From NCBI GenBank assembly GCA_900234795.1, contig LT962688.1, forward strand, positions 3,840,001 through 3,872,000: a DNA stretch of 32,000 bases, written 5' to 3'. Source of the DNA: Methylorubrum extorquens (lineage in GTDB: Bacteria; Pseudomonadota; Alphaproteobacteria; Rhizobiales; Beijerinckiaceae). Below are positions 2,479 through 23,196 of the stretch, piece by piece. The notes under the pieces are model-generated. The model searched no databases, was not told where the DNA came from, and saw only the letters and a list, made by a program, of their open reading frames with translations. Positions within the stretch are counted from its first letter, which is position 1. Each line of letters starts with the position of its first letter. Both the position numbers and the translations under genes were made by a program.

Positions 2479-2537
2479 ACCCTCGCTGTCCGCTTGAGCT
2501 GGACGGCCCGGCCTCTTCCGAAAATCCGAACGGCGGC

Positions 2538-4501: not shown

Positions 4502-4825
4502 ATGCGCGACCTCATGGGCATCATGAAGCAGGCCCAGGCCATGCAGGAGAAGATGGCCTCGGTTCAGTCCGAACTCGAAGCGGTCGAGGTGTCGGGCGCC
4601 TCCGGCGGTGGCGCCGTGACCGTGCGGATGACGGCCAAGGGTCAGGTGCTCGGCGTTTCGATCGATCCGAGCCTGATGGTCGCCGACGAACGGGAAATCC
4701 TGGAGGACCTGATCGTCGCCGCCTGCAACGACGCCCGCGGCAAGGCCGAGGCGACCGCCCAGGAAAAGATGGCGGAGCTGACGAAGGGTCTGCTGCTGCC
4801 GCCCGGCATGAAACTGCCGTTCTAG
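4502..4825 (+). CDS. ybaB: YbaB/EbfC-family nucleoid-associated protein
   Basis: This is the C-terminal 107 codons of track ORF 3623-4825, starting at ATG 4502: MRDLMGIMKQAQAMQEKMASVQSELEAVEVSGASGGGAVTVRMTAKGQVLGVSIDP... This is the classic YbaB sequence and the classic position after dnaX. Confidence 0.93.
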   Translation: MRDLMGIMKQAQAMQEKMASVQSELEAVEVSGASGGGAVTVRMTAKGQVLGVSIDPSLMVADEREILEDLIVAACNDARGKAEATAQEKMAELTKGLLLPPGMKLPF

Positions 4826-5037
4826 GGGTGATTCGACAGGATCAGCGGCGGGTTGTGTTCAGTCCGCCGGCAAAGGTCATGGCGTAGGGTGCGCGGCGTT
4901 CTGCCGCATACTGTTATGAAGGCGAGATCGATCGCCCTCGTACGGAACTCGCCCTTGGAATTAAAACGATAAATCAGGGACTTGGCTCGATCCGGCCATG
5001 GAACATCAGGGTTGCCGCCAAGCCCGCCATCTGAACG

Positions 5038-5379: not shown

Positions 5380-7794
5380 TCAGGCCGAAAGCCGCAGAGG
5401 CGTCCCTTCCAGGCTCGGCGTGAGGTCCGCGTCCTCGCCGTGGCGGGCAACCACCACCCGGGCCACACCGGTTTCCTTGGCGAGGCGATAGAGCGAGATC
5501 AGAGCCGGGTCGTCGGACGCCGCATCCGAGGCGATCACGATCGAATCCATGCAGGGTCCGACCGCGGGAATGAGGTCGGCACCGTCCTCGGCATGGCGCG
5601 CATCGAGGCGGCACAGCACCCAATCGTAACTCTGCGACAGGGCGTTGAGCCCGATGGCGAGGCCTTGCGGCTCCTCCACCAGCACATCGAGAGGCGCGGC
5701 GCCGCGCTTCACCGCGTGGAGACGCGAACCCCGCACCGGCTGGATCACGTCGAGGAAGTCGGCCGCACCGGCGACCAGATCGGTCAGGCCCGGCTCGGAC
5801 GGCCCGGAGACCACACCGTTCACATCGACCAGCAGCGTCTGGTAGCGCGGACCGAGCACCCGGGCGAGATTGGAGGCGAGACCGGGCGTGCCGTCGGCGC
5901 GCGGGGTTTCGACCACGAGCACACAGCCCCCCTTGGACGGCCCGGCCAACGGCCCCCTGCCCTGTCCCCGGCCCTGCGACTGGCCCGTTCCGTTCTCCAG
6001 CCGGGCGATCAGCCCGTCGAGATCTGCAGAGGAGGCGGAGGATTTGGCGGGGACGCCGAACCCTTCCTTGTCCGTTTTCGCCCCATCCGCTTGCGCGGCC
6101 GCCTCGGCTCCGATCGGCGCCGTGCTGGCGAAGACCGGGTGATGCACCGTTGCTGTCGCCCTCAGGGAATGGGCGAAGGCGAGGGCCGGCGCGAAGCGTT
6201 CCGCCGCCGAGGCCGGATAGGCGCCACCATAGACCGGCTCGTAGACAGGGCGGCGCGACGGGGGCGGCTCCGGCTCGGGATAGAAGTCGCGGGGGCGATC
6301 GGTCCGGGTGCTTTGGACGAGGGGCTCCCCCTCATCCCCGGTGCGGTCTCCGCCCGGCCCGGCCGGCGTGACGAGGAGATGGCGGCCGATGACCCCTGCG
6401 CTCGCGAGCAGGAAGGCCAGCATCGTGGCGAAGGCGACGATCGGCAGCTTCTTGGGGAAGGAGGGCAGATCGGGCACGATCGCACGGGACACCACGCGGG
6501 CATTGGCCGGGCTGGCATTCTCGGCATCACGCGCGGCGGCCTCGCGGTAGCGGGCGAGATAGGATTCGAGCTGTTCGCGCTGGGATTTCGCCTCGCGCTC
6601 CAGGGCGCGCAGCTCCACCTCGCTGGTGTTGCCCTTGGCGACCACGTCCTGCTGGCCCTCGACCGCCGCGCGCAGGCTCTCGACCCGGGCGCCCGCGATC
6701 TTGGCGTCGTTCTCGAGAGTACGCACCACCCGCTCGGCGGCGGCCTTGATCTGATTCTCGAGATCTTGGACCTGGGCCGTCAGCTCCTTGATGCGCGGGT
6801 GGGCCGGCAGCAGCGTGCGCGATTCGAGGGCGAGCTGCGCACGCATCGCCATGCGGCTCTCGACGGTTCGCCGAATCAGCTCGTTGTTGGCGACATCGGG
6901 GATCTCGAAGGCACGGCCTTCCTTGATCATGTCTTTGAGGAGCTTGGCGCGGGCGGTCAGGTCCGCCTGGATCGTGCGGGCCTGCGAGAGCTGGCTCGAC
7001 AATTCGGAGAGCTGCTGGGACGAGAGCGGCTGAGCCGCCGCGCTGCTGCCCGTGCCGATCAGGCCGTGCTTGGTGCGGAATGCCTCGACCTTCGCTTCGG
7101 CTTCGGCCACGCGGGCGCGCAGGTTCGCGATGTTGTTGCCGAGCCAGGTCGAGGCGTAACGGGCGGTATCGACGGAGGCCGCCTCCAGCGAGGCGAGGTA
7201 GAGGTCCGCCACCGTGTTGGCGCCGCGCGCGGCGAGTTCGGGATCGCGCGAGCGGAACTCGACGGCGAGGATGCGCGACTTGCCGACCGGATAGACCAGC
7301 AGGTGGTCGAGGTAGCTTTCGAGGATGCGATCCTCGGACGGACGATCCATCGGCGCCGAGACGAGCCCGAGCATCATCAGCGTGCGCCGGATCGCCGAAC
7401 TGCCCTCGGCCTCCGGATCGAATTCGGGGTTTCCGACCAGCTTCAGGCTGCGAATCGCTTCGCGGGCGATGTCGCGCGACATCGCCACCTGTACTTGGCT
7501 CGCGACGGCCTGCTCGTCGATCGGCTGGGTCTGGTCCGTCCGCTCGGCGGCGGTGCGGGCGAAGGCGGGGTCGCGGCTTTCCAGCAAAACCTTGGCTTCG
7601 CCGGTGTAGCGCGGGGTCACGACCTGCACGAAGACGCCCGCCCCGATCGCGGCCACGAGCGTCGGCACGGCGATCCAGGCCCAGGAGCGGCGCAGGACGC
7701 CGCCAATCTGCGCCACCGCCAATCCATCGCCGGGCCCACCGGGCCCACCGGAGGGCGGAAGAGACGGATCGGTCGACAGCCTGAGGCGCGGCAT
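5380..7794 (-). CDS. exopolysaccharide chain-length determinant / polysaccharide co-polymerase (ExoP/GumC/Wzc-like) with a degenerate C-terminal kinase-like domain
   Basis: The 804-aa ORF has an N-terminal Wzz-type segment (WAWIAVPTLVAAIGAGVFVQVVTPRYTGEAKVLLESRD), a long coiled-coil periplasmic region, a second TM (LPIVAFATMLAFLLASAGVIG) and a C-terminal P-loop-like fold. Confidence 0.85.
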   Translation of the reverse strand: MPRLRLSTDPSLPPSGGPGGPGDGLAVAQIGGVLRRSWAWIAVPTLVAAIGAGVFVQVVTPRYTGEAKVLLESRDPAFARTAAERTDQTQPIDEQAVASQVQVAMSRDIAREAIRSLKLVGNPEFDPEAEGSSAIRRTLMMLGLVSAPMDRPSEDRILESYLDHLLVYPVGKSRILAVEFRSRDPELAARGANTVADLYLASLEAASVDTARYASTWLGNNIANLRARVAEAEAKVEAFRTKHGLIGTGSSAAAQPLSSQQLSELSSQLSQARTIQADLTARAKLLKDMIKEGRAFEIPDVANNELIRRTVESRMAMRAQLALESRTLLPAHPRIKELTAQVQDLENQIKAAAERVVRTLENDAKIAGARVESLRAAVEGQQDVVAKGNTSEVELRALEREAKSQREQLESYLARYREAAARDAENASPANARVVSRAIVPDLPSFPKKLPIVAFATMLAFLLASAGVIGRHLLVTPAGPGGDRTGDEGEPLVQSTRTDRPRDFYPEPEPPPSRRPVYEPVYGGAYPASAAERFAPALAFAHSLRATATVHHPVFASTAPIGAEAAAQADGAKTDKEGFGVPAKSSASSADLDGLIARLENGTGQSQGRGQGRGPLAGPSKGGCVLVVETPRADGTPGLASNLARVLGPRYQTLLVDVNGVVSGPSEPGLTDLVAGAADFLDVIQPVRGSRLHAVKRGAAPLDVLVEEPQGLAIGLNALSQSYDWVLCRLDARHAEDGADLIPAVGPCMDSIVIASDAASDDPALISLYRLAKETGVARVVVARHGEDADLTPSLEGTPLRLSA

Positions 7795-8015
7795 GGGCAG
7801 TCTTTACGAAGGCAGGACGCGGATCGGGGTGATCGATCCGTCTTGGGCCAGTTGAGGTCGTTAAGGTTGACTTCCCGTTAAGAGCCGCAGCCTCCCGTCG
7901 TCGGCATTCGAGACGAGAGGTCGAACCCGAGTTGTGATTCCGGCCGGTCGCGCGGCCGGATCAGCATTCGTTAACCATGCGCCGTTAAGTAACGCCGAGG
8001 TTCTTCACAACGGCG

Positions 8016-8594
8016 ATGGCGATGCAGCGGCGCGCATTTCTCCTGGCCCTTCCGTCCGTCCTCGCGCTCGGCGGCTGCCTGCGTCCGGATTTCCGGACCG
8101 TCGATCTCGATGCCACCGGCACCGGTTCCATCGGCACGCGCTACTCTCTGGCGGCGGGCGACAAGCTTCGGGTCATCGTGTTCGGGCAGGACAACCTGTC
8201 CAACATCTACGCGGTCGATGGCGGCGGGCGGATCGCGATGCCGCTGATCGGCGTGGTTCAGGTCGGCGGGCAGACGACCGCTCAGGCCGCCCGGCTGATC
8301 GAATCGAAGCTCGCCGCCGGCTATGTGCGCGAGCCGCACGTGACGGTCGAGGTCGATGCCTACCGGCCCTTCTACATCCTCGGTGAGGTGACGACCTCGG
8401 GGCAATACCCTTACGTCAACGGCATGACCGTCGAGACGGCCGTGGCGATCGCCGCGGGCTTCGGCCCACGGGCGGCACGCGACTACGCGGTGCTGACCCG
8501 CGAGGGTCAGGGCGGGCTCATCAACGGCATCGTCCCGATGTCCTACCCGGTGCGGCCGGGCGACACGATCGTCGTCAAGGAGCGGTTCTTCTGA
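8016..8594 (+). CDS. polysaccharide export outer-membrane lipoprotein (Wza/ExoF/GumB family)
   Basis: The 192-aa ORF has a lipobox in MAMQRRAFLLALPSVLALGGC. It also shows the family motifs YSLAAGDKLRVIVFGQDNLS, DGGGRIAMPLIGVVQVGGQT, RPFYILGEV and GDTIVVKERFF. Confidence 0.85.
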   Translation: MAMQRRAFLLALPSVLALGGCLRPDFRTVDLDATGTGSIGTRYSLAAGDKLRVIVFGQDNLSNIYAVDGGGRIAMPLIGVVQVGGQTTAQAARLIESKLAAGYVREPHVTVEVDAYRPFYILGEVTTSGQYPYVNGMTVETAVAIAAGFGPRAARDYAVLTREGQGGLINGIVPMSYPVRPGDTIVVKERFF

Positions 8595-8766
8595 GCCGGC
8601 TCATCGCGACGTTCACCAACCCCTAACCGCGATCTACGAAAGCCGGCCAGCAGAGGCCTCCGCCTACCGTTTGCGCTTGCCCTTTAACCGGCTGCTGACG
8701 GCGCCATGACGATCTTCCGCCGGTTCGGGCCCCGCATCGGGGCCGCCCGCGCGGAGACCGACTGCC

Positions 8767-10026
8767 GTGGCCTCTCCCTTCGCCGCTCCTCTGACCGCCG
8801 CCCTGACGCCACAGGGTCCGGCGGGTCACGCCATCGCGGACCTGTCGTCCCGCGTCGGCACCGGTGAGCGGCACTGCATCCTCCACGTGTTCCGGGCCCC
8901 CGTGGGCGGCCTGTTTCGCCATGTCATCGATCTCACCCGCCTCCAGGCGGAGGCCGGGCACGCCGTCGGCCTCGTCTGCGACGCCTCGACCGGCGGCGAG
9001 CGGGCCGAACGGACGCTGGCGGATCTGGCCCCCTACCTCGCTCTCGGCGTCACGCGCGTTTCGATGCGCCGGAACCCGCATGCGAGCGACCTTCACGTCT
9101 TGCGCACCGTGCGAGCGCAGGCCCTCGCCGTCGGCGCCGACGTGTTGCACGGCCATGGCGCGAAGGGTGGCGTCTTCGCCCGCCTCGCCCCGCTCGGCAG
9201 CGCCGGGCGCGGCGTGATCCGCGCCTATACCCCGCATGGCGGCAGCTACAACTACCGTCCGGGCACGACCCTGCACCGGGTCTACATGGCCGCCGAGCAG
9301 GTGATGGCGCGGGCGACCGACCTGTTCCTGTTCGAGAGCGAGTACGTCGCTTCGCGTCATGCCGCCTTCGCCGGAGGCTCGCCGCGCCTCGAGCGGATCG
9401 TCCATAATGGCATCGCAGAAGCCGAGTTTGCCCCGGTGGAGACGGCGGATGACCCGTTCGATCTCGTCTATGTCGGTGAACTGCGCGAGGCCAAGGGATT
9501 GCCGGTGCTGTTGCGGGCGCTCGCGCGTCTGCGGGGCCAGGGCCGCGAACTCCGGCTTCTGATGGTCGGCTCCGGGCCCGATACCGAGAGCATCGCCGCG
9601 ATGGCCGAGAATCTCGGTCTGCGCCATGCCATCGCGTTCGAGCCGCCCCAGGCGATCCGGCCGGTGCTTGGACGCGGCCGCGTCATGGTGGTGCCGTCAC
9701 TGGCGGAATCCTTGCCCTACGTCGTGCTGGAGGCCGCGGCGGCCGGTCAGCCCCTCGTGGCGACCAATGTCGGCGGCATCCCCGAAATCTTCGGGGCCTT
9801 CTCCTCCGATCTGGTCCCGCCCGGCGATTGCGAGGCTCTGAGCACCGCGATCCTCCACATCCTCGATGAGGAGCCATCGCGCCGGCAAGGTCGCGCACGG
9901 GCGCTCAGCAATTCGCTGCGCACCCGCTTCTCCATGAACCGCATGGCGACCGACGTGCTGTGCGGCTACGCCGCCGCCTTCAGCGCGAAACGCATGCGGA
10001 CGGCGTCTGTCCCGGCGACCGCTTGA
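8767..10026 (+). CDS. GT4-family (group 1) glycosyltransferase
   Basis: The 419-aa ORF has a GTB-fold N-terminus ILHVFRAPVGGLFRHVIDLTRLQAEAGHAV. Its C-terminal half carries VVPSLAESLPYVVLEAAAAGQPLVATNVGGIPEI (the E-x7-E type motif). The GTG start at 8767 is uncertain. Confidence 0.85.
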   Translation: MASPFAAPLTAALTPQGPAGHAIADLSSRVGTGERHCILHVFRAPVGGLFRHVIDLTRLQAEAGHAVGLVCDASTGGERAERTLADLAPYLALGVTRVSMRRNPHASDLHVLRTVRAQALAVGADVLHGHGAKGGVFARLAPLGSAGRGVIRAYTPHGGSYNYRPGTTLHRVYMAAEQVMARATDLFLFESEYVASRHAAFAGGSPRLERIVHNGIAEAEFAPVETADDPFDLVYVGELREAKGLPVLLRALARLRGQGRELRLLMVGSGPDTESIAAMAENLGLRHAIAFEPPQAIRPVLGRGRVMVVPSLAESLPYVVLEAAAAGQPLVATNVGGIPEIFGAFSSDLVPPGDCEALSTAILHILDEEPSRRQGRARALSNSLRTRFSMNRMATDVLCGYAAAFSAKRMRTASVPATA

Positions 10027-10157
10027 GCGCGGACGGCGGTACGTTCGATGTCCCCGTTTTTCACAGCCCGGCCCGTCCGCGCATTAGGCTTTCGTGAAGG
10101 TCGATGCGGCACACTCGACGACCGGGGAGGCTCGATGTTTTCACGTGGAACATTCCG

Positions 10158-11714
10158 ATGAACGCCATCGACGTTCGGGATCTGCTGAAGGTCGCGAGGG
10201 AGAACGGCGCGCTGACATCCGTGCCGGCGCCGCTCGCGCTCCACAGCGACCAGAATTCTGTCTCTGCTCCGTCCGCGCCGATCCCCGCGCCGACCCCGCC
10301 GAAAGGGGCTTGGCTGTCGCCGGTCGTGCTTGCCGGTTGCGTGCGGCTCGCCGAATTCTGCGGTCTGATCTTGCTTGGCTTGGCTCTGCATCAGGCCTTG
10401 CTGCGCGGCGTCGTACCGCTCGCCCCGCGCTACCACGCCGCCATTCTCGCAGTGACCCTGGCGGCGCTCGGACTGTTCCAGGCATCGGGCAGTTACCGGA
10501 TCAGCGCATTCCGCGATCTGCCGAGAACGGCGGTGAAGCTCGCCACCGGCTGGTCCATCGCCTTCCTGATGGTGGCCGCGGCCATGGTGCTCGCCAAGGT
10601 CGCCGACCATTATTCCCGGATCTGGCTGCTCAGCTATTACATGGCGGGTCTCGGCATCCTGCTCGGCGGCCGCGCAGCGCTTTCGGCCTTCGTCCGCATG
10701 CAGATGGCCAAGGGGCGCTTCGACCGGCGTACCGCGATCGTCGGCGGCGGACCGGCGGCCGTGGAACTGATCCATGCCCTGGAAGCCAGCAGCGACAACG
10801 GCATCCGCATCATCGGGATCTTCGATGACCGGGGCGACGACCGATCCAGCACCGACGTCGCCGGCTACCCCAAGCTCGGCAATGTCAGCGACCTCGTCAC
10901 CTACGCCCGCCACGCGCCCGTCGATCTCGTGGTGTTCACCCTGCCGATCTCGGCCGAGACGCGCATCCTGCAGATGCTCGCCAAGCTCTCGGTTCTGCCG
11001 GTCGACATCCGCCTCTCGGCCCACGCGACCAAGCTGCGCCTGCGCCCGCGCGCCTATTCCTATCTCGGCGGCGTGCCGCTGCTCGACGTGTTCGACAAGC
11101 CGCTGGCCGATTGGGACGTCATCCTGAAGGGCGCGTTCGACCGTGTCGTCGGCCTGCTGCTGCTGCTGGCCCTTTCACCGGCGATGATCGCCGTGGCGCT
11201 CGCGGTGAAGCTCACCTCGCCGGGGCCGGTGCTGTTCCGGCAGAAGCGCTACGGCTTCAACAACGAGCTGATCGAGATCTTCAAGTTCCGCTCGATGTAT
11301 GTCGACCTCTGCGACGCGGGCGCATCGCAGCTCGTTACCAAGACCGATGCCCGGGTGACGCCCGTGGGCCGCTTCATCCGCAAGACATCGCTGGATGAGT
11401 TGCCGCAGCTCTTCAACGTGATCCGCGGCGATCTCTCGCTGGTCGGGCCGCGCCCGCATGCGGTCCAGGCCAAAGCGGCGAACACCCTCTACGATCAGGT
11501 GGTGGACGGGTACTTCGCCCGCCACAAGGTCAAACCCGGCATCACCGGCTGGGCGCAGATCAATGGCTGGCGCGGCGAGACCGACACCAGCGAGAAACTC
11601 CAGCGCCGGGTCGAGCACGACCTGCACTACATCGAGAATTGGTCGATCCTGTTCGACCTCAAGATCCTGCTCACCACGCCGCTCGCGCTCTTTAAGACCG
11701 ACAACGCGTATTGA
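10158..11714 (+). CDS. undecaprenyl-phosphate sugar-1-phosphate transferase (WcaJ/ExoY-type priming enzyme)
   Basis: This is the track ORF 10104-11714; ATG 10158 (MNAIDVRDLL) is the likelier start. It has N-terminal TM helices, a CoA-binding-like domain (TAIVGGGPAAVELI) and a bacterial sugar transferase domain (VLFRQKRYGFNNELIEIFKFRSM, DELPQLFNVIRGDLSLVGPRP). Confidence 0.9.
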   Translation: MNAIDVRDLLKVARENGALTSVPAPLALHSDQNSVSAPSAPIPAPTPPKGAWLSPVVLAGCVRLAEFCGLILLGLALHQALLRGVVPLAPRYHAAILAVTLAALGLFQASGSYRISAFRDLPRTAVKLATGWSIAFLMVAAAMVLAKVADHYSRIWLLSYYMAGLGILLGGRAALSAFVRMQMAKGRFDRRTAIVGGGPAAVELIHALEASSDNGIRIIGIFDDRGDDRSSTDVAGYPKLGNVSDLVTYARHAPVDLVVFTLPISAETRILQMLAKLSVLPVDIRLSAHATKLRLRPRAYSYLGGVPLLDVFDKPLADWDVILKGAFDRVVGLLLLLALSPAMIAVALAVKLTSPGPVLFRQKRYGFNNELIEIFKFRSMYVDLCDAGASQLVTKTDARVTPVGRFIRKTSLDELPQLFNVIRGDLSLVGPRPHAVQAKAANTLYDQVVDGYFARHKVKPGITGWAQINGWRGETDTSEKLQRRVEHDLHYIENWSILFDLKILLTTPLALFKTDNAY

Positions 11715-11738
11715 GGATCCTTGAGACCCGAACGGGAC

Positions 11739-11782
11739 GAGGCCCAGGACCGCCAGAGTGCAGTCCTGGGCCTCTTCATTTC
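11739..11782. terminator. intrinsic terminator between convergent genes
   Basis: A perfect 12-bp stem, gaggcccaggac (11739-11750) / gtcctgggcctc (11763-11774), is followed by TTCATTTC. Confidence 0.7.
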
Positions 11783-11817
11783 ACAAGAGATAATTGAGAT
11801 CGGGCCGTGGCGCCGAA

Positions 11818-12177
11818 TTACGGCAGCGCGCCGGCCTTCTCCTTCACCTTGGTCATGGTGTCCTGGCAGGCGGTCTCCTGGCCGGCCTTCTCCTGCTCCT
11901 TCGCCTTGGCGAGCAGGGTACGCGCCTCTTCCACACCGGCCTTCGTTGGCTTGGTGGAGGGATCGGACGGGGCGCCGGCCGGCGGCTTGTCGAGGGCCTT
12001 GGGCGAGTTCGAGGAGGTGACGCCGCCCGGCGGCTCCTTGCCGGTCACCTGCTCCGCACCGGCGCTGTTGAGCCGGCGCTCCACCGTGGAGATGTCGTCC
12101 TTGCAGCTGACGGCCAGGGCGGGGCCTGCGGTGACGAGGACGGCGAGGGCAACGGGCAAGGTCAGGGCAATGCGCAT
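11818..12177 (-). CDS. small secreted protein of unknown function, immediately downstream of lanM
   Basis: This is the track ORF 11818-12291. The internal start MRIALTLPVALAVLVTAGPALA (ATG = complement of 12175-12177) gives a signal peptide. The mature part has two Cys (VSCKDD..., QETACQD) flanking a Pro/Lys-rich low-complexity middle. Confidence 0.6.
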   Translation of the reverse strand: MRIALTLPVALAVLVTAGPALAVSCKDDISTVERRLNSAGAEQVTGKEPPGGVTSSNSPKALDKPPAGAPSDPSTKPTKAGVEEARTLLAKAKEQEKAGQETACQDTMTKVKEKAGALP

Positions 12178-12319
12178 GGGGTTGGGGCTCCTCCGGATCA
12201 ACTTGTGACGAGTCGGTCCCGTGACCGCTCGCTTCGGTCGGAACAGTCCTCGAAGGCCCCTCAGGGTTCCGCTCTGCGACGCTTCGCCCACGGCCCGGAG
12301 ACGGGCCGCCGGACATGAG

Positions 12320-12354
12320 AAAGGGGTGCGGATCTCGCGATCCGCACCCCTTTT
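12320..12354 (-). terminator. strong stem-loop downstream of lanM
   Basis: A perfect 12-bp stem, ggggtgcggatc (12323-12334) / gatccgcacccc (12339-12350), has a tcgc loop and is flanked by AAA and TTTT. It sits 26 nt past the lanM stop. Confidence 0.75.
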
Positions 12355-12379
12355 CGTACCGCACGAAGCGTCGGGAAAT

Positions 12380-12781
12380 TTAGCGGATCAGATTGACCAG
12401 GGCCGAACCAGCCGGGCTGGCCAATTCCCTAGCGTCGATGGTGCCATCATTGTCCGGGTTAGCGGCCTTGAATTGCGCCTCGACGGCGGCAAGGTATTCC
12501 TTCTTGTCGAGGGTGCCGTCGTTGTCCGGGTCGAGCTTCTTGAGGTCGGCCTCGCTGACGCGGCCCTTGAGCTCCTTGGCATCGAGCGTGCCGTCCTTAT
12601 CCGGATCGAGCTTGTCGAAGGCAGCGGAGCCGGCGGCCAGGGCCTCCTTCAGATCGATCGTGCCGTCCTTGTCCGGATCGAAGGCGGCGATATCGACCTT
12701 CGTGGTCGTCGTCGGGGCGGCGTAGGCCGGAGCGGCGACGAGCGCAGCGAGCAGAACGGCAGAGGAGAGGCGGAACGCCAT
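12380..12781 (-). CDS. lanM: lanmodulin, periplasmic four-EF-hand lanthanide-binding protein
   Basis: The 133-aa ORF MAFRLSSAVLLAALVAAPAYA-APTTTTKVDIAAFDPDKDGTIDLKE...DPDKDGTLDAKE...DPDNDGTLDKKE...NPDNDGTIDARE...LVNLIR has four 12-residue EF loops, each with Pro at loop position 2. It matches my memory of the published M. extorquens AM1 LanM sequence. Confidence 0.97.
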   Translation of the reverse strand: MAFRLSSAVLLAALVAAPAYAAPTTTTKVDIAAFDPDKDGTIDLKEALAAGSAAFDKLDPDKDGTLDAKELKGRVSEADLKKLDPDNDGTLDKKEYLAAVEAQFKAANPDNDGTIDARELASPAGSALVNLIR

Positions 12782-13003
12782 CGGGGCAAACTCCTGATCG
12801 AAGAGGCCCGGCGAAACCGGGCAAACGGCAAAATCGCAGAGACGCTCGCGACCACCATACCTCAGGCAAACATGCCACCGGACGAGCGGCCGTTCGGCCT
12901 CGCTTAGATTGCGTAACTTGCCCGGGAGAAATTGGCAATAGGCAGGATGGAATTCGCAGCTCCCGCCCAGCCGAAAACCCTGGAGTCAGGGTCAAATACG
13001 GAA

Positions 13004-13073
13004 GCGGCGCGGTCCAGGAGAACCGCGCCGCTCGCGTCGATCGACAGATGCCCCGGACCGGATACGGTCCGGG
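13004..13073 (-). terminator. two perfect 9-bp GC stem-loops between lutH and lanM (possible terminator or attenuator)
   Basis: The first is gcggcgcgg (13004-13012) / ccgcgccgc (13023-13031). The second is cccggaccg (13052-13060) / cggtccggg (13065-13073). On the minus strand the first is followed by TTCCGTATTTGA. Confidence 0.5.
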
Positions 13074-13098
13074 AGCGTGCTCGGTACTTGCGTCCCGC

Positions 13099-15624
13099 TC
13101 AGCCCTTCCGGACCAGCGGGAACGGCTCCACCACGGGGGCGGCCGGCGGCGGCTCGAACAGGATGCGCAGGCCGCCGAAGGCCGCCACCGGCGCGCCGGG
13201 CGCGAGGCTGCGGTTCGAGGTGGCGTTGGGCACCCGGACGATCGGAACCTCGTTCACCGGCGAGAAGGTGCCGAAGGTGGCGTAGTTGGCGTTGAAGGCG
13301 TTCTCGATGTAGCCGTAGAGTTCGATGTTCGACGCCACGCGGTAGCTCGTGTTGAGGCCGACCACCGCGAAATCGCCCGTGGTCTTGTTCTGGTTGGTCG
13401 GATCGCCGACGAGGAACTTGCCCGTGGCGAAGCGCGCGAGCGCGCCGACCCGCCATTCCGGCGTCACCTGATACTGCACGCCGACCTTGAGCTGGTGCGG
13501 CGCGACGCCGGGCAGGCGGTTGCCCGGACGCACGAGCACGACACCGCTCTCGTCGCCGCCGGCGCTGTTGAACGGGTTGCCGGGCGCGGCGAGTTCGACC
13601 GGCGACTCGAAGGTCGCATCGACGAAGGCGTAGTCGATGAAGGCGTTCCAGCGCGGCGCGTTGTAGAACAGGCTCGCCTCGACGCCCTGCCGCTTGGTCG
13701 ATCCGACGTTGCGGAAGAAAGCGCGGCCGATCGTGTCGGGGGCCGGCACGAACAGGATGTCGTCGTCGTTGCGGGTCGAGAAGAAGCCGGCCTTCCACGA
13801 CAGGATGCCGCCGAAATATTCGTCGGGCTGCGGGATGCGGCCGCGGATACCGGCCTCGACGGTGCGCGCCACGACCTGCTTCAGCGGCGGGTCGCCGACG
13901 AAGAAGTTGGTGAGCGAGCAGGGCGCCAGCGGATCGGCGCAGGAGAGTTCGGCCGGGGTCGGGGCGCGGTTGGCTTCCGTGTAGCCGCCGTAGGCCACGA
14001 GGTAGTCGGGGATGACCTTGTAGGTCGCGCCGACGCCGGGGTTGAAGCGCTGGTAATAGTGGTCGCCGTTCAGCGCCGTGCCGATCTGGTCGCGCAGGAC
14101 GATCTTGGCCATGTTGAACCGGCCCTGCAGCGTCAGGGTCAGCCGGTCGGTCAGATCGGTGTTGTTCGAGAAGTAGATGCCGCCGTAATCGTTCGAGGTG
14201 TGGACCGAGACGGGGGTGATGATGCCGTCGTCGCTGGAGACGACGATGCCGGGAGGCGAGAAGCCGCGGTCGAGGGTCAGGCCGCCGATGGAGTTGTCGG
14301 CCCCGAAGCGGGTGCGACCGCCGTCATACTGGCCGCCGAGCACGAAGCGGTTCGGCAGGCCGAACAGCGTCTCGCGGATCACGGTCTGGACCGTAGCGCC
14401 GAAATTGTCGGTGCTGGTACGGGTCTGGTTGAGGAAGGCGTAGGGTCCGCCCTCGTCGAAGCGGTCGGCGAAGGTCGGGTTGATCCCGCCGAAGTTGAAG
14501 GTGCGCAGCCGGTCGGTCCGGACGGGGCTGCCGGTGCGGTCACGCAGGAAGAACTGGTTGTCGTCCGCGCCCTCGGAGCAGACGAAACGCTCATCGACCT
14601 CGCAATTTTCCACGTCGGCGGCGTCGCCGTTGGCGGTGCGCTGGCGGAACAGGCCGTAATAGGCGTTGCCCTGCACGGTGATGGTCGGCGTGACGTCGTA
14701 GGTGCCGGAGAGCTGGAAGCGCAGGAAGTCGTTCTTGGTCTGGTCGGGATAGGTGAAGACGTCGCTGCGGTCGGCCTTCAGCAGCTCGACCGGAGCGGTA
14801 CCGTTGCCGGTCAGGCTGTTGCTGGCACCGATGACGTTGAAGTGGAATTCGCTCTTCTCGCCCTGCACGCCGAGATCGGCGTAGATCTGGTTGAGCCGCG
14901 ACGGCGAGTGCTTGCGCCAGCCGTCCTCGCCGAGCTTGGTGCCGGCGACGTAGAGGCCGATATTGTCGATGCGCTGGCCGTGCTGGAACGCCACCGCGCC
15001 GCGGCCGAACGAGCCGCCGAGCACGTTGATCTCGCTGCCCTGGTAGGTGAAGCCGTTCTTGAGCGTCACCGCCAGCGAGCCGCCGAGCGCGTTGAGGCCG
15101 AAGGCCGGGTTCGAGCCCTCCAGCTCGATCCGATCGACGGCGATGTCGGGGATCAGATCCCACTGCACCGTGTCGCCGAACGAGGTGTTGAAACGGGCAC
15201 CGTTGAGATAGACGGCCACGCCCTGCGGCGAGCCGCCGAGCGGCGAGGCCTCGAAGCCGCGATAGGTGATCGTCGGCTGGAAGGGATTGCCCTGGGCGTT
15301 GTTGACGCTGATCGAGCCGACGCGCTCGTCGAGCGCCCGCACCGTGCTCGGAAAGCCGACGCGCGAGACGTCGCCCGAGGTCAGCACGCTCGTGTTCTGC
15401 GGCAGCTTGTTGCGGTCGATGCCGTCGAGGACCGTGACTTCGCGCAGACCCGACGGGGTCTGGGTGGCGACGACCCGGCGCGAGGCCGCAACCGGCGTGT
15501 TCGAGACGACGCTGATCTCTTCGAGCGTCACGGCCTGTCCACCGCCCGCGCCTTGCGCCATCACATGTCCCGGAAGCAGTGCAACCGATGCGATGAGGCT
15601 GCCTCGCAGCACCCGCATTGTCAT
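13099..15624 (-). CDS. lutH: TonB-dependent outer-membrane receptor (lanthanide/lanthanophore uptake candidate)
   Basis: The 841-aa ORF has a signal peptide MTMRVLRGSLIASVALLPGHVMA and a TonB-box-like VTLEEISVV. Plug motifs are ITYRGFEAS and VDRIELEGSNPAFGLNALGGSL, followed by a long beta-barrel. The symbol is assigned from adjacency to lanM, as in the AM1 lut cluster (from memory). Confidence 0.93.
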   Translation of the reverse strand: MTMRVLRGSLIASVALLPGHVMAQGAGGGQAVTLEEISVVSNTPVAASRRVVATQTPSGLREVTVLDGIDRNKLPQNTSVLTSGDVSRVGFPSTVRALDERVGSISVNNAQGNPFQPTITYRGFEASPLGGSPQGVAVYLNGARFNTSFGDTVQWDLIPDIAVDRIELEGSNPAFGLNALGGSLAVTLKNGFTYQGSEINVLGGSFGRGAVAFQHGQRIDNIGLYVAGTKLGEDGWRKHSPSRLNQIYADLGVQGEKSEFHFNVIGASNSLTGNGTAPVELLKADRSDVFTYPDQTKNDFLRFQLSGTYDVTPTITVQGNAYYGLFRQRTANGDAADVENCEVDERFVCSEGADDNQFFLRDRTGSPVRTDRLRTFNFGGINPTFADRFDEGGPYAFLNQTRTSTDNFGATVQTVIRETLFGLPNRFVLGGQYDGGRTRFGADNSIGGLTLDRGFSPPGIVVSSDDGIITPVSVHTSNDYGGIYFSNNTDLTDRLTLTLQGRFNMAKIVLRDQIGTALNGDHYYQRFNPGVGATYKVIPDYLVAYGGYTEANRAPTPAELSCADPLAPCSLTNFFVGDPPLKQVVARTVEAGIRGRIPQPDEYFGGILSWKAGFFSTRNDDDILFVPAPDTIGRAFFRNVGSTKRQGVEASLFYNAPRWNAFIDYAFVDATFESPVELAAPGNPFNSAGGDESGVVLVRPGNRLPGVAPHQLKVGVQYQVTPEWRVGALARFATGKFLVGDPTNQNKTTGDFAVVGLNTSYRVASNIELYGYIENAFNANYATFGTFSPVNEVPIVRVPNATSNRSLAPGAPVAAFGGLRILFEPPPAAPVVEPFPLVRKG

Positions 15625-15904
15625 TCCCCAGCCCTTATCATTCGTGCTTGCGGCCCGTTCGAGCGGAACCGTTGCCGGATGTTGCTGAAGGAGGGGGGCA
15701 ACGACAATCGCTGCCAGGCTTCTACGGGACCAATTATGATGAGACGCTCAAGCTTCCGCCGGCGCGTGGTGTTCTGGCAACATATTTCTGCCGTTCCGTC
15801 AAAGACTTACGGATAAAAAGGCAGACTTCACCGGGATCATTCGGCAAGCTTCGATCGGCTTTAGCCGCCCGTTCCGACCAGGATTGCGCCGAGTCTCTAT
15901 CGCC

Positions 15905-15930
15905 AAAAAATCGGGATGCCCCACATCCCG
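15905..15930 (-). terminator. intrinsic terminator on the minus strand, ~235 nt downstream of lutG
   Basis: A 7-bp stem, cgggatg (15912-15918) / catcccg (15924-15930), has loop cccca. On the plus strand A6 sits at 15905-15910, which is U6 after the hairpin on the minus strand. Confidence 0.6.
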
Positions 15931-16165
15931 CCGCTTCGGCGCGACCAAGATAGCCGATCACGGAGCGCAGTGCGAAGTCATGCCGCTCGCGCCAAGGCCG
16001 CGTCGCGCCGGGCATCAGATGGCCGGCGGCCGTTCTCGAGGCGAAACGCTTCGACGGCCGCGGCCCGGCCCAAATCCCGGCACGAAATCGTGGACAGGCC
16101 GGTCCGAAACGCTCGTGCCGCAGCGTTCGGCGGAAACGGCTTCGTCGCTTCCGACCGAAGGCGGG

Positions 16166-16805: not shown

Positions 16806-17699
16806 TCAGGCGGCTTCGCCGGCCGGTCCGCCGCGCCGGGCCATGATGCCGCGGCCCGGATCGTAGGCGATTGCGGCGAGGGTGAAGAACAGGAGGCCGG
16901 TGCCGACCACGACGGCGCAGGCGACCGGCTCGAAGCGCCCGTAGAGAGCGAAACGCACCAATTCGACCGCGTGGGTGAACGGGTTGGCCTGGCAGATGAG
17001 ATAGAGCCACTCGCTCGATGCCCGGACCTGCCAGAGCGGATATAGGGCAGAAGAGGCAAAGAACATCGGGAAGATCACGAAATTCATGACGCTCGCGAAG
17101 TTCTCAAGTTGCCGCACCAGCGAGGACAGGAACAGGCCGATCGCCCCGAGCATCAGCCCCGAGGCCAGGAAGGCCGGCAGCGCGGCGAGGTAGCCGAGGG
17201 GCGGAATGCCGGTCTCCCAGAACCATGCGATGGCGAGGAACGCGTACGCCTGAACGATAGAGACACTGACGCCCGCGACCAGCTTGGCCAGCAGCAGCGA
17301 CCAGCGCGGATAGGGCGAGGTGAGCAGCACCTTCATCGAGCCGACCTCGCGGTCGTAGACCATCGAGAGCGAGGATTGCATGCCGTTGAAGAGCTGGATC
17401 ATCACCGCGAGCCCCGGCACCACGTAGGCCTCGTAGAGCACGTAGGTCTCGTAGGGCGGCGTGATCGAGGTGCCGAGCGTGTTGCGGAAGCCCGCCGCGA
17501 AGATGAACAGCCAGACGAGCGGGCGCACCATCGCCGAGAAGAAGCGCTCCTTCTGGTGGAAGAAGCGCAGCAACTCGCGGCGGACGATGCCGCCGAGCGC
17601 GATGAGGTAGCCGACCGCATCGAGCCGGCCCGCATGGGGCACGGGCTTCGCGCCGTCCTCGGCACGGGCTGCAACGGCGGGGTTCGAGGGAGACCTCAT
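16806..17699 (-). CDS. lutF: ABC-2-type transporter permease
   Basis: The 297-aa ORF has about six hydrophobic helices, for example RPLVWLFIFAAGF, GLAVMIQLFNGMQSS and LFLSSLVRQLENFASVMNFVIFPMFFASSALYP (the ABC-2 signature region). Its ATG overlaps the lutE stop as ATGA. Confidence 0.9.
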   Translation of the reverse strand: MRSPSNPAVAARAEDGAKPVPHAGRLDAVGYLIALGGIVRRELLRFFHQKERFFSAMVRPLVWLFIFAAGFRNTLGTSITPPYETYVLYEAYVVPGLAVMIQLFNGMQSSLSMVYDREVGSMKVLLTSPYPRWSLLLAKLVAGVSVSIVQAYAFLAIAWFWETGIPPLGYLAALPAFLASGLMLGAIGLFLSSLVRQLENFASVMNFVIFPMFFASSALYPLWQVRASSEWLYLICQANPFTHAVELVRFALYGRFEPVACAVVVGTGLLFFTLAAIAYDPGRGIMARRGGPAGEAA

Positions 17700-18445
17700 G
17701 CGGCGGACTTCACGGCTCTCTTGTCGGGTTCGGCGACGAGGCGGCGGAAGGCAGCCTCCAGCGTCTCACCGGGCCCGCCGATCTCCCCAGCGCGGCCACG
17801 GGCGACGATGCGGCCCTTGTGCAGGACCACGGCGTCGTCCTCGGGCGAAATCTCCTCGAAGATGTGGGTCGCCCACAGCACCGAGAGACCCTCCTCCCGC
17901 ACCAGGGCGCGGACGATGGCGACGATGTCGGCGCGCGATTCGAGGTCGAGCCCGACGGTCGGCTCGTCGAGCAGCAGCAGGCGCGGCGCGTGGATCAGCG
18001 AGCGGGCGATCTCGATGCGCCGCGACTGGCCGCCGGAAAGGGTGCGGATCTTGTCGTCGCGCCGCTCGGCAAGGCCGACGCGGGCGAGCAGGGTCTCGAT
18101 GCGCGCACGCGCCGCCGCCCGGCCGATGCCGTGCAGGCTGGCGTGGTAGTGCAGGTTCTGCGCGACGGTGAGGTCGGTATCCAGCGTCCGCGCCTGGAAC
18201 ACCACGCCGAGGCCGGCGAGCGCCCGCGACGGCTCACGGTCGAGCGGATGGCCGAGGATCGAGACCCGGCCCTCCTGGTTGTTGTAGAGCCGGGTGATCA
18301 CCGAGAACAACGTGGTCTTGCCCGCGCCGTTGGGCCCGAGCAGCGCCATGAAATGCCCGCGCTCGACGGTGATCGACACGTCGGACAGCGCGGCGCGCTG
18401 GCCGAAGCGGTGGCTGACGCCGGCAACGTCGAGAGCCGCGCTCAT
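17696..18445 (-). CDS. lutE: ABC transporter ATP-binding protein
   Basis: This is the track ORF 17696-18487. I prefer the start MSAALDVAGVSHRF (complement of 18443-18445), which overlaps the lutD stop as ATGA. It has Walker A GPNGAGKTT, signature LSGGQSRR and Walker B LLLLDEPTVGLD. Confidence 0.95.
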   Translation of the reverse strand: MSAALDVAGVSHRFGQRAALSDVSITVERGHFMALLGPNGAGKTTLFSVITRLYNNQEGRVSILGHPLDREPSRALAGLGVVFQARTLDTDLTVAQNLHYHASLHGIGRAAARARIETLLARVGLAERRDDKIRTLSGGQSRRIEIARSLIHAPRLLLLDEPTVGLDLESRADIVAIVRALVREEGLSVLWATHIFEEISPEDDAVVLHKGRIVARGRAGEIGGPGETLEAAFRRLVAEPDKRAVKSAA

Positions 18446-18720
18446 TTCGGCAGCGCCCGCTTGGCGTCGTCGAGCGCTTCCAGGCACTCGTCAAACTCGC
18501 CCTCGCCTTGCTCGCGCTCGGCGATCTTCAGCGCGCGCTTGAGTTTTTGCGGGACGGCTTCCGGTGCGAGCTTTTCCGCCTGCGCCTTCACCACGCTGAT
18601 GCCCTCGGCGCAGGCGGCCTTGTCGTCGGCGAGCGCCGGGGTCGCAAGCACCACGAGGGCAAGCAGGGCGCTACCGCGAAAACCTCTCGGTACGGCGAGG
18701 GAGGTGCGTGTGCGCATCAT
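18442..18720 (-). CDS. lutD: small secreted helical protein with a Cys pair and an acidic C-terminal patch
   Basis: The 92-aa ORF has signal peptide MMRTRTSLAVPRGFRGSALLALVVLATPALA. The mature part reads DDKAACAEGISVVKAQAEKLAPEAVPQKLKRALKIAEREQGEGEFDECLEALDDAKRALPK. It is translationally coupled to lutE. The symbol comes from gene order (from memory). Confidence 0.7.
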   Translation of the reverse strand: MMRTRTSLAVPRGFRGSALLALVVLATPALADDKAACAEGISVVKAQAEKLAPEAVPQKLKRALKIAEREQGEGEFDECLEALDDAKRALPK

Positions 18721-18733: not shown

Positions 18734-19168
18734 TCACTTCACCGTAATCGTGCCGGCCATGCCCTTTTCCTCAAGCCCTTGCGCGTACCACTTGTAGGCA
18801 CCCGGCTTGATGGCGACGAACTCGATGGCGATCTCGCCGGGATCGTCGAATTCGAGATGGTCGGGCGGGCCGCCGCCGTGGATCTCTTTGTGCTCGATCA
18901 CGATCTGGTTGAACCAGATGTAGCGGAAGAATTCGGGCGCGTAGAATTTGTACTCCTGCCGCCCCTTGGCGACGATGCGCAGGCGGTAGGCCTTGCCGGC
19001 TTCCAGCTCGATATCCTTGTTCTCGACCACGAAGTCGTTGCCCTCCTCGTTGCCGAGCACGAGGTCGGGCAGGTTCTGCCGCTTCTTGGTGAGGTCGAGG
19101 GCGCTCGCCGGGGCGGCGGCCAGCATCAGGGCCGCGGCGGCGAGGCCGAGGCGCGTCGTCCACTTCAT
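18734..19168 (-). CDS. lutC: periplasmic cupredoxin-like protein apparently lacking copper ligands
   Basis: This is the track ORF 18734-19225. The start MKWTTRLGLAAAALMLAAAPASA (complement of 19166-19168) is preceded by GGAGGA. The C-terminal KPGAYKWYAQGLEEKGMAGTITVK resembles the cupredoxin PGxYxYxCxxxxHxxxGMxGxIxV strand pair, but with Ala and Leu/Glu where Cys and His are expected. Confidence 0.72.
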   Translation of the reverse strand: MKWTTRLGLAAAALMLAAAPASALDLTKKRQNLPDLVLGNEEGNDFVVENKDIELEAGKAYRLRIVAKGRQEYKFYAPEFFRYIWFNQIVIEHKEIHGGGPPDHLEFDDPGEIAIEFVAIKPGAYKWYAQGLEEKGMAGTITVK

Positions 19169-19189
19169 GTCGCTTCCTCCGGTTTCTTG

Positions 19190-19242
19190 TTCTTGCATCG
19201 CCCTTTTCCGAAGGCCGGCAACCACCTTTCGGGACGATGCCT
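19190..19242. repeat. ~50-bp palindromic intergenic element, copy 1 (between lutB and lutC)
   Basis: The sequence ttcttGCATCGcccTTTTCCGAAgGCCGGcaaCCACCTTTCGGgaCGATGC is near-identical to 25386-25437. The outer arms GCATCG/CGATGC and inner arms CCGAA(A)G/CTTTCGG can form a long hairpin. Confidence 0.8.
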
Positions 19243-19259
19243 TAGCCGGCGAACTGAAC

Positions 19260-20246
19260 TTACTTCTTCGAGATCGCCACGCCCCAGGGCAGCAACCCGA
19301 CCGGGATGCTTTTCACCACCTTCAGCCCCTCGACGTCGATGACCGAAACGTCGTTGGAGGTGCCGTTGGTCGTGTAGAGTTGCTTCTCGTCGGGCGTGAA
19401 GGCGAGCTGCCAGACGCGCTGGCCGACGGGCAGGTATTTCTGCACCTCGTAGGTCTTGGCATCGACCACCGCGACGCGGTTGGCCGGCCCGAGCGCGACG
19501 AAGGCGCGGGTGCCGTCCTTGGTCAGGCGCACGCCGACGGGCTGGATCTGCTCGTCGGTGACGCTCGGAACCTTGAAGGTGATCTTCTTGATGACCTTGC
19601 GGGTCGCCACGTCGATCACCGAGACCGTGCCGCCGACCTCGGCCGAGACCCAGAGGAACTTGCCGTCCGCCGAGAACTCGGCGAAGCGCGGCCGGGCATC
19701 GACCAGCACGTTGTCGATCACCTCGAAGGTCTTGGTGTCGATGAAGTGGGCCATGTTGGTGGTCTCGGAGGTGTTCACGAGAATCTTGCCGTCCGGCGAT
19801 AGGCCCATCCCCTCCGGCTCGACGCCCACCGGCACCTCGGCCAAAACCTTGTTCTTCTCGATGTCGAGGATGGTGACTTGGCTGTCGTCCTCGTTGGCGA
19901 CGTAGAGCGGGTTGCCGCTCTGATCGAGGATGAACTGCTCCGGGTCGGGCCCCGAGCGCAGGGAGCGGACCACCTTGCCGGTCGCGGTGTCGAGCACGTC
20001 GATGCGGTCGTCGTCGCTGGCGCAAACGAACAGTTCCTTGTCGTCCTTGGAGAGCGTCACGCCGCGCGGGCGACGCCCGACCTTCCAGGTCCCGGTCACC
20101 GCCAGGGTCTCGGTGTCGATGACCGAGACGGTGTTGGCCTTCTCGTTGGTGACGTAGGCGGTAAAGGCTTGTGCGCTCCCTGCGCTCCCGAGCGACACGC
20201 CCGCGAGCAGCGCGCATCCCAGTCCTGCCCTCAAGCGAGCGACCAT
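19260..20246 (-). CDS. lutB: periplasmic YVTN-repeat beta-propeller protein (PQQ-dehydrogenase-system-associated type)
   Basis: This is the track ORF 19260-20408, with the start MVARLRAGLGCALLAGVSLGSAGSAQA at the complement of 20244-20246. The body shows repeated blades of the form xYVTNxxxNTVSVIDxxTxxVxxxxxVGxxPxGxxxSxDG. Confidence 0.9.
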   Translation of the reverse strand: MVARLRAGLGCALLAGVSLGSAGSAQAFTAYVTNEKANTVSVIDTETLAVTGTWKVGRRPRGVTLSKDDKELFVCASDDDRIDVLDTATGKVVRSLRSGPDPEQFILDQSGNPLYVANEDDSQVTILDIEKNKVLAEVPVGVEPEGMGLSPDGKILVNTSETTNMAHFIDTKTFEVIDNVLVDARPRFAEFSADGKFLWVSAEVGGTVSVIDVATRKVIKKITFKVPSVTDEQIQPVGVRLTKDGTRAFVALGPANRVAVVDAKTYEVQKYLPVGQRVWQLAFTPDEKQLYTTNGTSNDVSVIDVEGLKVVKSIPVGLLPWGVAISKK

Positions 20247-20412
20247 CGGCGTCCTCCCTGTCGTTTCCGGCGCGTCGTCTCGCGCGCCTGCGTCCACATC
20301 GGCTGGAGCGACATGGCCCCCGCGGCCCCGTCGCTCAAACAAGAAACAGATGATCGGCTGAACCTCACCGGGCGGTGGATTGCCGCATCGCCCGGATCGC
20401 ATCCGCAAGCGG

Positions 20413-21681: not shown

Positions 21682-21728
21682 TGCCCGTCACGCTAGCAAC
21701 ATCTTGCCACCGGCCTCAACGAGAGAAG

Positions 21729-21747
21729 CATAAGATTTTCATAAGAT
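21729..21747. promoter_or_regulatory. tandem direct repeat CATAAGAT-ttt-CATAAGAT (11-bp period) in the lutA / divergent-operon control region
   Basis: Read directly at 21729-21736 and 21740-21747. It ends 47 nt upstream of the lutA ATG and lies in the most AT-rich patch of the 232-bp divergent intergenic region. Confidence 0.45.
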
Positions 21748-21913
21748 GGTGTGGTCGGGCGACCGCGGGGCCAGCGTTGTTACGCGCCGCATCGCCGTTG
21801 CCGGACCTGCCGATACGCTCCGGCGACGGTCGCGTCGACGCTTGCCAAATCCTCCGGGAAACCGAGTTAAAGCCCGTCCGCGCGGCCCCGCGCCCGTTCG
21901 AGGCTCTCACCCC

Positions 21914-22435
21914 ATGCGACTTCGCGCCCTCCTGCCCGCCCTCACCCTCCTGTCGACGCTGAGCGGGACAGCCCTGGCAGAGGATGCGGCACGCAAGGCT
22001 GCGATCTTCCCGGCGGAGGTGAACGATCCGACGCTGGCCTATGGCCGCAAGCCGCTGCCGGCGGACCAGAAGCGCCTCGACCTCGTCACCGACGTGCTGC
22101 GCAAGCAACTCGCCGAGAAGGGCGGCCTCGAGAGCGTCGATCTCAGCCCCCAGGCGGAGGAAATCCGTAAGGAGAGCCCACTCTACAAGTGCAACGACTG
22201 CGTCGCTCCGATCGCCAAGGCGCTGGGCGCGGAACTCGCCGTGACCGCCTTCGCCGACAAGGGCGCCAACCAGTTGTTCAGCCTCGTCGTCACCATCGCC
22301 GAAGCCGAGACCGGCAAGGTCGTGCGCCGGGGCCAGGTCGTGATAAGAGCCAACACCGACGACGACTGGTCCCACGCCACACGCTGGATCGTGAAGAACC
22401 GCCTTCTGGCCGAGCCGCTGCCCGGCCGTTCCTGA
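21914..22435 (+). CDS. periplasmic protein of unknown function with a CxxC motif
   Basis: This is the track ORF 21746-22435, with the start MRLRALLPALTLLSTLSGTALA at ATG 21914. The mature protein contains YKCNDCVAPIAKALGAELAVTAF. I have a vague recollection of a DUF3280/DUF2380-type family, which is not verifiable here. Confidence 0.7.
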   Translation: MRLRALLPALTLLSTLSGTALAEDAARKAAIFPAEVNDPTLAYGRKPLPADQKRLDLVTDVLRKQLAEKGGLESVDLSPQAEEIRKESPLYKCNDCVAPIAKALGAELAVTAFADKGANQLFSLVVTIAEAETGKVVRRGQVVIRANTDDDWSHATRWIVKNRLLAEPLPGRS

Positions 22436-22480
22436 AGCGGGGCTTGTGCGGGCGCGCAAGGCTGAGCAAGAACGTTTCCC

Positions 22481-23191: not shown

Positions 23192-23196
23192 GGCGT

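Follow-up and report, generated by a model that had tools for sequence, protein, structure and literature searches.

A lanmodulin gene of the Methylorubrum extorquens group in its lut cluster, identical in mature sequence to the AM1 protein, with a conserved upstream block as candidate promoter or operator

The DNA analysed here, hereafter the window, is a stretch of 32,000 nucleotides from Methylorubrum extorquens (GenBank assembly GCA_900234795.1, contig LT962688.1, forward-strand positions 3,840,001 to 3,872,000). Its minus strand carries an ATG-started ORF of 133 aa plus stop in the ORF listing, here called lanM, which lies between lutH and lutI. According to family matches and gene calls, the gene order lutA-B-C-D-E-F-G-H, lanM, lutI in the window is that of MexAM1_META1p1778-1787, the published cluster for lanthanide utilisation and transport (Roszczenko-Jasinska et al. 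2020, PMC7391723). The role of lutH in lanthanide uptake is taken from PMC6850437 and PMC7391723. Within the cluster, lanD overlaps lutE by 4 nt. The coordinates of all features are collected in Table 1.

Table 1. Genes and sequence features of the window, in order of position (12-residue EF loops numbered from the N-terminus of LanM).
Feature	Position	Strand	Basis or remark
dnaX	2538-4412	+	downstream of SRP RNA
ybaB	4503-4826	+	downstream of SRP RNA
Wzz/GNVR chain-length protein	5380-7794	-	
Poly_export/SLBB	8016-8594	+	
GT4 glycosyltransferase	8767-10026	+	
Bac_transf sugar transferase	10158-11714	+	
lutI, 119 aa, at the end of the published ten-gene cluster	11818-12177	-	gene call; no Pfam match; name from PMC7391723
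Perfect GC-rich hairpin, likely terminator of lanM, starting ~24 nt past its stop	12320-12356	-	folding
lanM, lanmodulin precursor	12380-12781	-	ORF; PDB 6MI5/8FNS identity; NCBIfam NF053806
EF loop 4, NPDNDGTIDARE, aa 108-119, Asn at position 1	12425-12460	-	pattern; weak micromolar site per PMC10232371
EF loop 3, DPDNDGTLDKKE, aa 84-95	12497-12532	-	pattern; PMC10232371
EF loop 2, DPDKDGTLDAKE, aa 59-70	12572-12607	-	pattern; PMC10232371
EF loop 1, DPDKDGTIDLKE, aa 35-46	12644-12679	-	pattern; high-affinity site per PMC10232371
Predicted signal peptide, aa 1-21, cleavage after AYA	12719-12781	-	judged by eye from sequence
Shine-Dalgarno AGGAG, 9 nt before ATG	12791-12795	-	sequence; cross-species alignment
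Conserved 31-nt block ATTGCCAATTTCTCCCGGGCAAGTTACGCAA, 128-158 nt upstream of lanM ATG	12909-12939	-	12-species alignment
GC-rich hairpin after the lutH stop, then U-rich tail; likely lutH terminator	13002-13033	-	folding, alignment
lutH, TonB-dependent receptor for lanthanide uptake, 839 aa, ORF possibly to 15624	13099-15618	-	Pfam Plug, TonB_dep_Rec_b-barrel
lutG, periplasmic protein of unknown fold, 209 aa	16166-16795	-	gene call; no Pfam match; name from PMC7391723
lutF, ABC-2 permease	16806-17699	-	TIGR03861, 379.9 bits; Pfam ABC2_membrane
lutE, ABC ATPase	17696-18445	-	TIGR03864, 350.6 bits
lutD/lanD (landiscernin), small lanthanide-binding LanM partner	18442-18720	-	PDB 9C8W, E=1.9e-30
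lutC, periplasmic protein, 144 aa	18734-19168	-	gene call; no family match
lutB, YncE-like beta-propeller, 328 aa	19260-20246	-	Pfam YNCE, 75.4 bits
lutA, periplasmic solute-binding protein of ABC system (PQQ-ADH-system)	20413-21681	-	TIGR03863, 503.7 bits
DUF3280	21914-22435	+	
4-HFC-P synthase MfnB-like	22481-23191	+	
DUF6513/pterin-binding protein	23295-25382	+	
DUF447	25439-26035	+	
SRPBCC/Polyketide_cyc2 protein, first of two	about 26160-26610	+	
SRPBCC/Polyketide_cyc2 protein, second of two	26643-27206	+	
Second YncE-like beta-propeller	27447-28334	+	
Hydantoinase_A-domain gene	ending at 28590	-	
His_biosynth-domain gene	ending at 30323	+	
CitG-like gene	31233-31976	-	

The lut cluster is flanked on both sides by other gene groups. 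Directly downstream of lutI, a polysaccharide export/synthesis cluster occupies 5380-11714, and the region beyond lutA (21914-31976) looks like the edge of a methylotrophy island with H4MPT/methanofuran cofactor-type genes. An Rfam scan of the whole window returned only the bacterial small SRP (4.5S) RNA (RF00169, 58.8 bits, 2385-2481, plus strand), located just upstream of dnaX, and nothing near lanM. The gap between lutG and lutH (15619-16165) comprises ~540 bp of non-coding DNA, unusually long for the cluster, had no Rfam match, and contains one difference from GenBank CP021054.1 at 16020. The minus-strand ORFs 19168-20217, 20234-21175, 21719-23203, 23571-25205, 25382-25909, 25909-26613, and 26562-27404 had no family matches and were discarded as spurious high-GC frames.

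A pattern search of the lanM translation returned exactly four canonical 12-residue EF loops. They match letter for letter the loops quoted in the initial annotation, which had not mentioned the minus strand. Every loop has Pro at position 2 (Pro2) and Asp at position 9, and EF4 alone begins with Asn (Asn108, codon AAC, 12458-12460, minus strand); both the complete set of Pro2 residues and the Asn-initial fourth loop had been pointed out before and are seen in the translation. The linkers between the loops are 12, 13, and 12 residues long. The N-terminus, MAFRLSSAVLLAALVAAPAYA followed by AP, contains a basic residue, a hydrophobic core, and an AxA site (AYA, then A). It looks like a Sec signal peptide, whose predicted cleavage after aa 21 would leave a mature protein of 112 aa, the size that the initial annotation had estimated at about 112 aa. 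The solved lanmodulin constructs begin at residues 23 and 29 of the lanM ORF numbering, and a periplasmic location of LanM is described in PMC7391723, PMC9260416, and PMC11551332. In the Shine-Dalgarno sequence of lanM, GGAG was invariant in 12 species, with the preceding A found in 11/12.

When all PDB chain sequences were searched, LanM residues 23-133 were identical to PDB 6MI5 'Lanmodulin' at 111/111 positions (E=1.2e-65), and residues 29-133 were identical to PDB 8FNS at 105/105 positions. Both entries are the LanM of M. extorquens AM1 (Mex-LanM) (PMC10232371, PMC9362731, PMC13128445). The apparent identity to the AM1 protein, which the initial annotation had noted together with a proposal to align the two, was thereby borne out at 100% over residues 23-133. 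The NCBIfam equivalog NF053806 'lanmodulin LanM' matched with 199.7 bits (E=1.6e-59, profile positions 2-132 of 132), the curated whole-protein cutoff being 135 bits. According to Mattocks et al. 2023 (PMC10232371), a LanM is recognised by four EF hands, a spacing of 12-13 residues, and Pro2 in one or more hands, and all three hallmarks were found here, with 4 EF hands, linkers of 12/13/12 residues, and Pro2 in 4/4 loops. The same criteria expect fewer than 200 residues and a signal peptide; the ORF has 133 aa, with the signal peptide predicted by eye. The ~25-residue spacing with paired helix-loop-helix units that characterises canonical Ca(II) sensors was not found in the window LanM, whose spacing is 12-13 residues. 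Judged by its sequence, the ORF encodes the lanmodulin of the M. extorquens group, and nothing counts against this identity.

The initial annotation had also called Pro2 in every loop the hallmark that separates LanM from Ca-binding EF-hand proteins. Its presence in 4/4 loops stands, but as a family-wide hallmark it was overstated, the published criterion being at least one Pro2 plus the spacing. A scan of species-representative genomes found LanM relatives at 22 loci, and Pro2 occupied all four loops in 14/22 of them. EF2 carries EK instead of DP in four Methylobacterium species, two loops of the M. aquaticum LanM have no Pro2, and in the PDB alignment the solved Ancylobacter lacus LanM has Pro2 in one loop only. 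Whole LanM orthologue clades have been reported to contain no Pro2 at all (PMC13128445). Across these sequences, Pro2 in all four loops reads as a trait of the prototype from M. extorquens and of sequences close to it, and not as a family-wide discriminator; the inter-loop spacing is the more general LanM hallmark.

The fourth loop was also compared across the family. EF4 starts with Asp in 18/18 relatives from Methylorubrum/Methylobacterium species, including the M. thiocyanatum protein, which is 98% identical to the window LanM, and Asn and Asp differ here by one base. Among the 22 relatives, Asn at this position recurred only in Bradyrhizobium- and Tardiphaga-type sequences. The Asn in EF4 of Mex-LanM has already been noted as atypical among nearest neighbours (Diep et al. 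2026, PMC13128445), and it was dropped as a new observation for that reason. Separately, a MAG labelled 'Bordetella parapertussis' (contig CALRXG020000029.1) contains a LanM homologue with EF loops like those of Bradyrhizobium mercantei, one EF1 residue being different. This is probably binning contamination or a mislabelled MAG and not a Bordetella lanmodulin.

The locus is well conserved within the group. In the assembly collection, 219 blocks contain the exact 133-aa LanM, and the lut-lanM gene order was the same in the 8/8 M. extorquens-group genomes compared. Directly upstream of lanM, a LutH homologue at least 85% identical was found in 11 other Methylorubrum/Methylobacterium species, and lutI adjoined lanM in 13/22 species loci. 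In M. aquaticum, lanM is unlinked to the lut genes; thus, the linkage is not universal among LanMs.

Strain comparison separated the lanthanide-binding partners. Over 20.4 kb, the window and GenBank CP021054.1 showed 13 differences (99.94% identity), all of them outside lanM, and the window was ~97% identical to strains CM4, DM4, and five other genomes. The crystallised AM1 LanD (PDB 9C8W, UniProt C5B159; PMC11551332) shared 56/61 mature residues with the LanD of the window. All five differences (D/E, A/S, A/V, R/Q, and V/A) fell at mature positions 8-17, within the first 17 residues, and two other loci matched the AM1 LanD at 61/61 residues. Because LanM was invariant across strains whose LanD varies, at 5/61 residues here, LanD is the more variable partner. 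The same five residues rule out that the window comes from strain AM1. Together with the 99.94% identity to CP021054.1, they indicate that the LanM equals that of AM1 and the genome does not; the genome belongs to a member of the M. extorquens group that resembles CP021054.1.

The flanks of lanM were folded and aligned. The 112 nt that follow the lutH stop (12990-13101) folded at -66.4 kcal/mol (z = -6.2), and their hairpin was conserved across species. Downstream of lanM, the 86-nt stretch 12300-12385 folded at -42.7 kcal/mol (z = -4.3), and 0/200 shuffles folded as well. A simple scan of 11700-13200 for sigma-70 promoters and intrinsic terminators found nothing. It missed the lanM hairpin because the U-tail of that hairpin is short (UUUCUC). 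The lutH and lanM hairpins were detected by folding only, their U-tails being short or imperfect. Bracketed by these hairpins, lanM appears to be its own, monocistronic transcription unit. Separate transcription fits the PA1 proteome, in which lanmodulin is La-induced and the neighbouring receptor is unresponsive. A structured regulatory element in the ~125-nt lanM leader was considered and found unsupported, the 12-species consensus fold consisting of a single small hairpin ahead of the RBS, to which covariation contributed -0.35 kcal/mol.

Between the lutH hairpin and lanM lies the conserved 31-nt block, with the pattern ATTGCCAA-N4-TCCCGGG-N3-G-N-TACGCAA. It holds the inverted repeat TTGCC-N11-GGCAA and a -35-like TTGCCA, and its core was invariant in the 12-species alignment of Methylorubrum/Methylobacterium. 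Even with 3 mismatches allowed, the block was unique in the window, with 0 occurrences expected by chance, and in 19/30 loci it recurred at this position ahead of lanM. These features suggest a candidate promoter or operator of lanM, a function proposed from conservation and motif content. More tentatively, the block might be the lanthanide-responsive promoter or operator behind the strong La induction of lanM but not of the adjacent lutH, a possibility that we rate as doubtful; if true, it would offer a handle on the regulator of the lanthanide response. The literature searched, an incomplete set and hence weak evidence on this point, contained no description of the lanM promoter in M. extorquens and only a reporter study in M. 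aquaticum. The block is possibly the sole undescribed item at the lanM locus.

The metal chemistry of the identical mature sequence has been described in detail. Apo-LanM is largely disordered, and metal binding produces a three-helix bundle with peripheral metal sites (PMC10232371). EF1-3 bind Ln(III) at picomolar affinity with a 10^8-fold selectivity over Ca(II), and the affinity of EF4 is only micromolar (PMC10232371). In the 1.01 A Nd(III) structure, EF1-3 are nine-coordinate and EF4 is ten-coordinate, each site having two solvent ligands and a hydrogen bond to Asp9 (PMC10232371). The weakness of EF4 has been attributed to Asn1, and the discrimination against Ca partly to Pro2 (PMC9362731). 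Isolated 12-mer loop peptides bind Eu(III) alike, at ~8 uM (PMC9362731). Since the loop peptides are all alike and only micromolar, the loop sequence alone, Pro2 and Asn1 included, leaves the picomolar affinity unexplained, indicating that cooperativity and pre-organisation dominate (PMC9362731). The titration of La/Nd versus Ca that the initial annotation had suggested is already published for this mature sequence (PMC10232371). The picomolar, Ln(III)-selective response shown for the characterised protein may be assigned to the window LanM through their identity.

The physiological role of LanM is one that the literature infers. In PA1, lanmodulin was the most strongly La-induced protein (26-fold), its deletion caused no growth defect, and the neighbouring receptor did not respond to La (PMC6850437). 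There were no transposon hits in lanM, and La-dependent growth did not need the gene (PMC7391723). The partner LanD, likewise encoded in the window, has a Kd of about 4 uM for apo-LanM, does not bind the holo form, and hands Ln(III) over to LanM (PMC11551332). Both proteins prefer Nd and Sm, leading to a model in which the LanD-LanM axis siphons less useful lanthanides from cytosolic import (PMC11551332). Following these reports, the precursor encoded in the window would be exported to the periplasm and trimmed of its ~21-residue signal peptide to the 112-aa mature form. There, the largely disordered apoprotein would take up Ln(III) at EF1-3, with picomolar affinity and a preference of ~10^8-fold over Ca(II), and close into a compact three-helix bundle, the Asn-initial EF4 acting as a micromolar site. 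LanM would work with the neighbouring lut uptake cluster and receive Ln(III) from periplasmic LanD (LutD). It may thus buffer or sequester periplasmic lanthanides, especially the less-used Nd and Sm, and keep them from the LutAEF route to the cytosol. We hold the joint reading, comprising the identity as LanM, the picomolar Ln(III) biochemistry, and a LanD-fed periplasmic sequestration, with near certainty. As a role, sequestration or buffering downstream of LanD is the best current model and ranks as most likely, with a shuttle and a regulatory or detoxifying function as overlapping rivals; it is limited by the lack of a growth phenotype on La and by the in vitro origin of the LanD-to-LanM 'siphon' (PMC11551332).

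One of these rivals is a metallochaperone function. LanM would then be a periplasmic shuttle that takes lanthanides from LutH and delivers them either to XoxF, the methanol dehydrogenase, or to the importer LutA-LutEF, and the position of lanM immediately after lutH, inside the uptake cluster, agrees with this, as does its co-induction by La with XoxF, XoxG, and XoxJ (PMC6850437). A periplasmic Ln shuttle was also the original proposal of the literature (PMC9260416). However, deletion of lanM caused no defect in La-dependent growth (PMC7391723, PMC6850437), and LanM prefers Nd and Sm over the biologically favoured La and Ce (PMC11551332). The known direction of transfer is from LanD to LanM, and a picomolar affinity hinders onward release (PMC11551332), so that we regard the shuttle as unlikely. 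Slightly better placed, though still doubtful, is a function in regulation or detoxification, in which LanM would keep free periplasmic Ln(III) low, prevent phosphate precipitation and membrane damage, feed into the MxcQE/MDH switch, and take part in vesicle export. M. aquaticum cells with a lanM deletion aggregated, had impaired membranes and La deposits in the periplasm, and expressed mxcQE at altered levels (PMC9260416), a phenotype that points to homeostasis, protection of the membrane, and export in vesicles and not to uptake. This evidence comes from a homologue that is 58.5% identical and unlinked to lut genes, not from M. extorquens, and the function overlaps with sequestration by LanM without excluding it.

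The remaining rival concerns the protein class. Pfam assigned only generic EF-hand families to LanM (EF-hand_1, E=1e-20, four matched stretches; likewise EF-hand_5 and EF-hand_6), and calmodulin, troponin C, and centrin appeared as weak PDB matches (E 1e-5 to 1e-3), as would be expected of a generic calmodulin-like, Ca(II)-binding EF-hand protein. However, the sequence is 100% identical to a characterised lanthanide-selective protein and passes the LanM equivalog cutoff, its linkers have 12-13 residues against ~25, and Pro2 is present in 4/4 loops. A generic calmodulin-like protein without Pro2, the case that the initial annotation had set against its own reading, is excluded by the hallmarks and by the LanM identity, and we consider this rival refuted, with a negligible chance of being right.

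Lanmodulin founded the class of natural lanthanide-selective proteins and serves as a platform on which rare earths are sensed and separated. This importance has been established since 2018 for exactly the sequence found here, and finding it again in another genome of the M. extorquens group adds nothing new. The protein, its structure and metal chemistry, the gene cluster, the partner, and the finer sequence peculiarities are all published already.

Compared with named systems, the window is closest to Mex-LanM of AM1 (MexAM1_META1p1786; NMR structure 6MI5 and 1.01 A Nd(III) crystal structure 8FNS), with which it shares the mature sequence, the loops, the spacing, and the signal-peptide architecture. 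The flanks of the AM1 locus are also the same, with lutA-H upstream and lutI downstream. Between AM1 and the window the protein shows no difference, whereas LanD, 5.7 kb away, agrees at only 56/61 residues, and the DNA is ~97% identical to loci with an AM1-type LanD. In PA1, lanmodulin (Mext_1854; Ochsner et al. 2019, PMC6850437) adjoins the essential TonB receptor Mext_1853 and an ABC system at the edge of a methylotrophy island. The window is laid out in the same way, with H4MPT/methanofuran-type genes beyond lutA; this likeness is one of layout, not of PA1 sequence.

More distant lanmodulins share the general plan. Hans-LanM (Hansschlegelia quercus, PDB 8DQ2/8FNR) and the A. lacus LanM (PDB 9PI2) have four EF hands, a 12-13-residue spacing, a similar size, and lanthanide selectivity in common with the window LanM. 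Hans-LanM differs in being only ~33% identical, in its EF1-3 loops, which start with Asn and carry Glu at position 9, and in dimerising on metal binding (PMC10232371), and the A. lacus LanM differs in having Pro2 in a single loop. Calmodulin and troponin C share with LanM the 12-residue D-x-D-x-D-G loops, the Glu at position 12, and the Pfam families. However, they have ~25 residues between loops, paired EF lobes, and no Pro2, and are Ca(II)-responsive and cytosolic, whereas LanM resides in the periplasm, folds as a three-helix bundle, and discriminates 10^8-fold against Ca(II) (PMC10232371).
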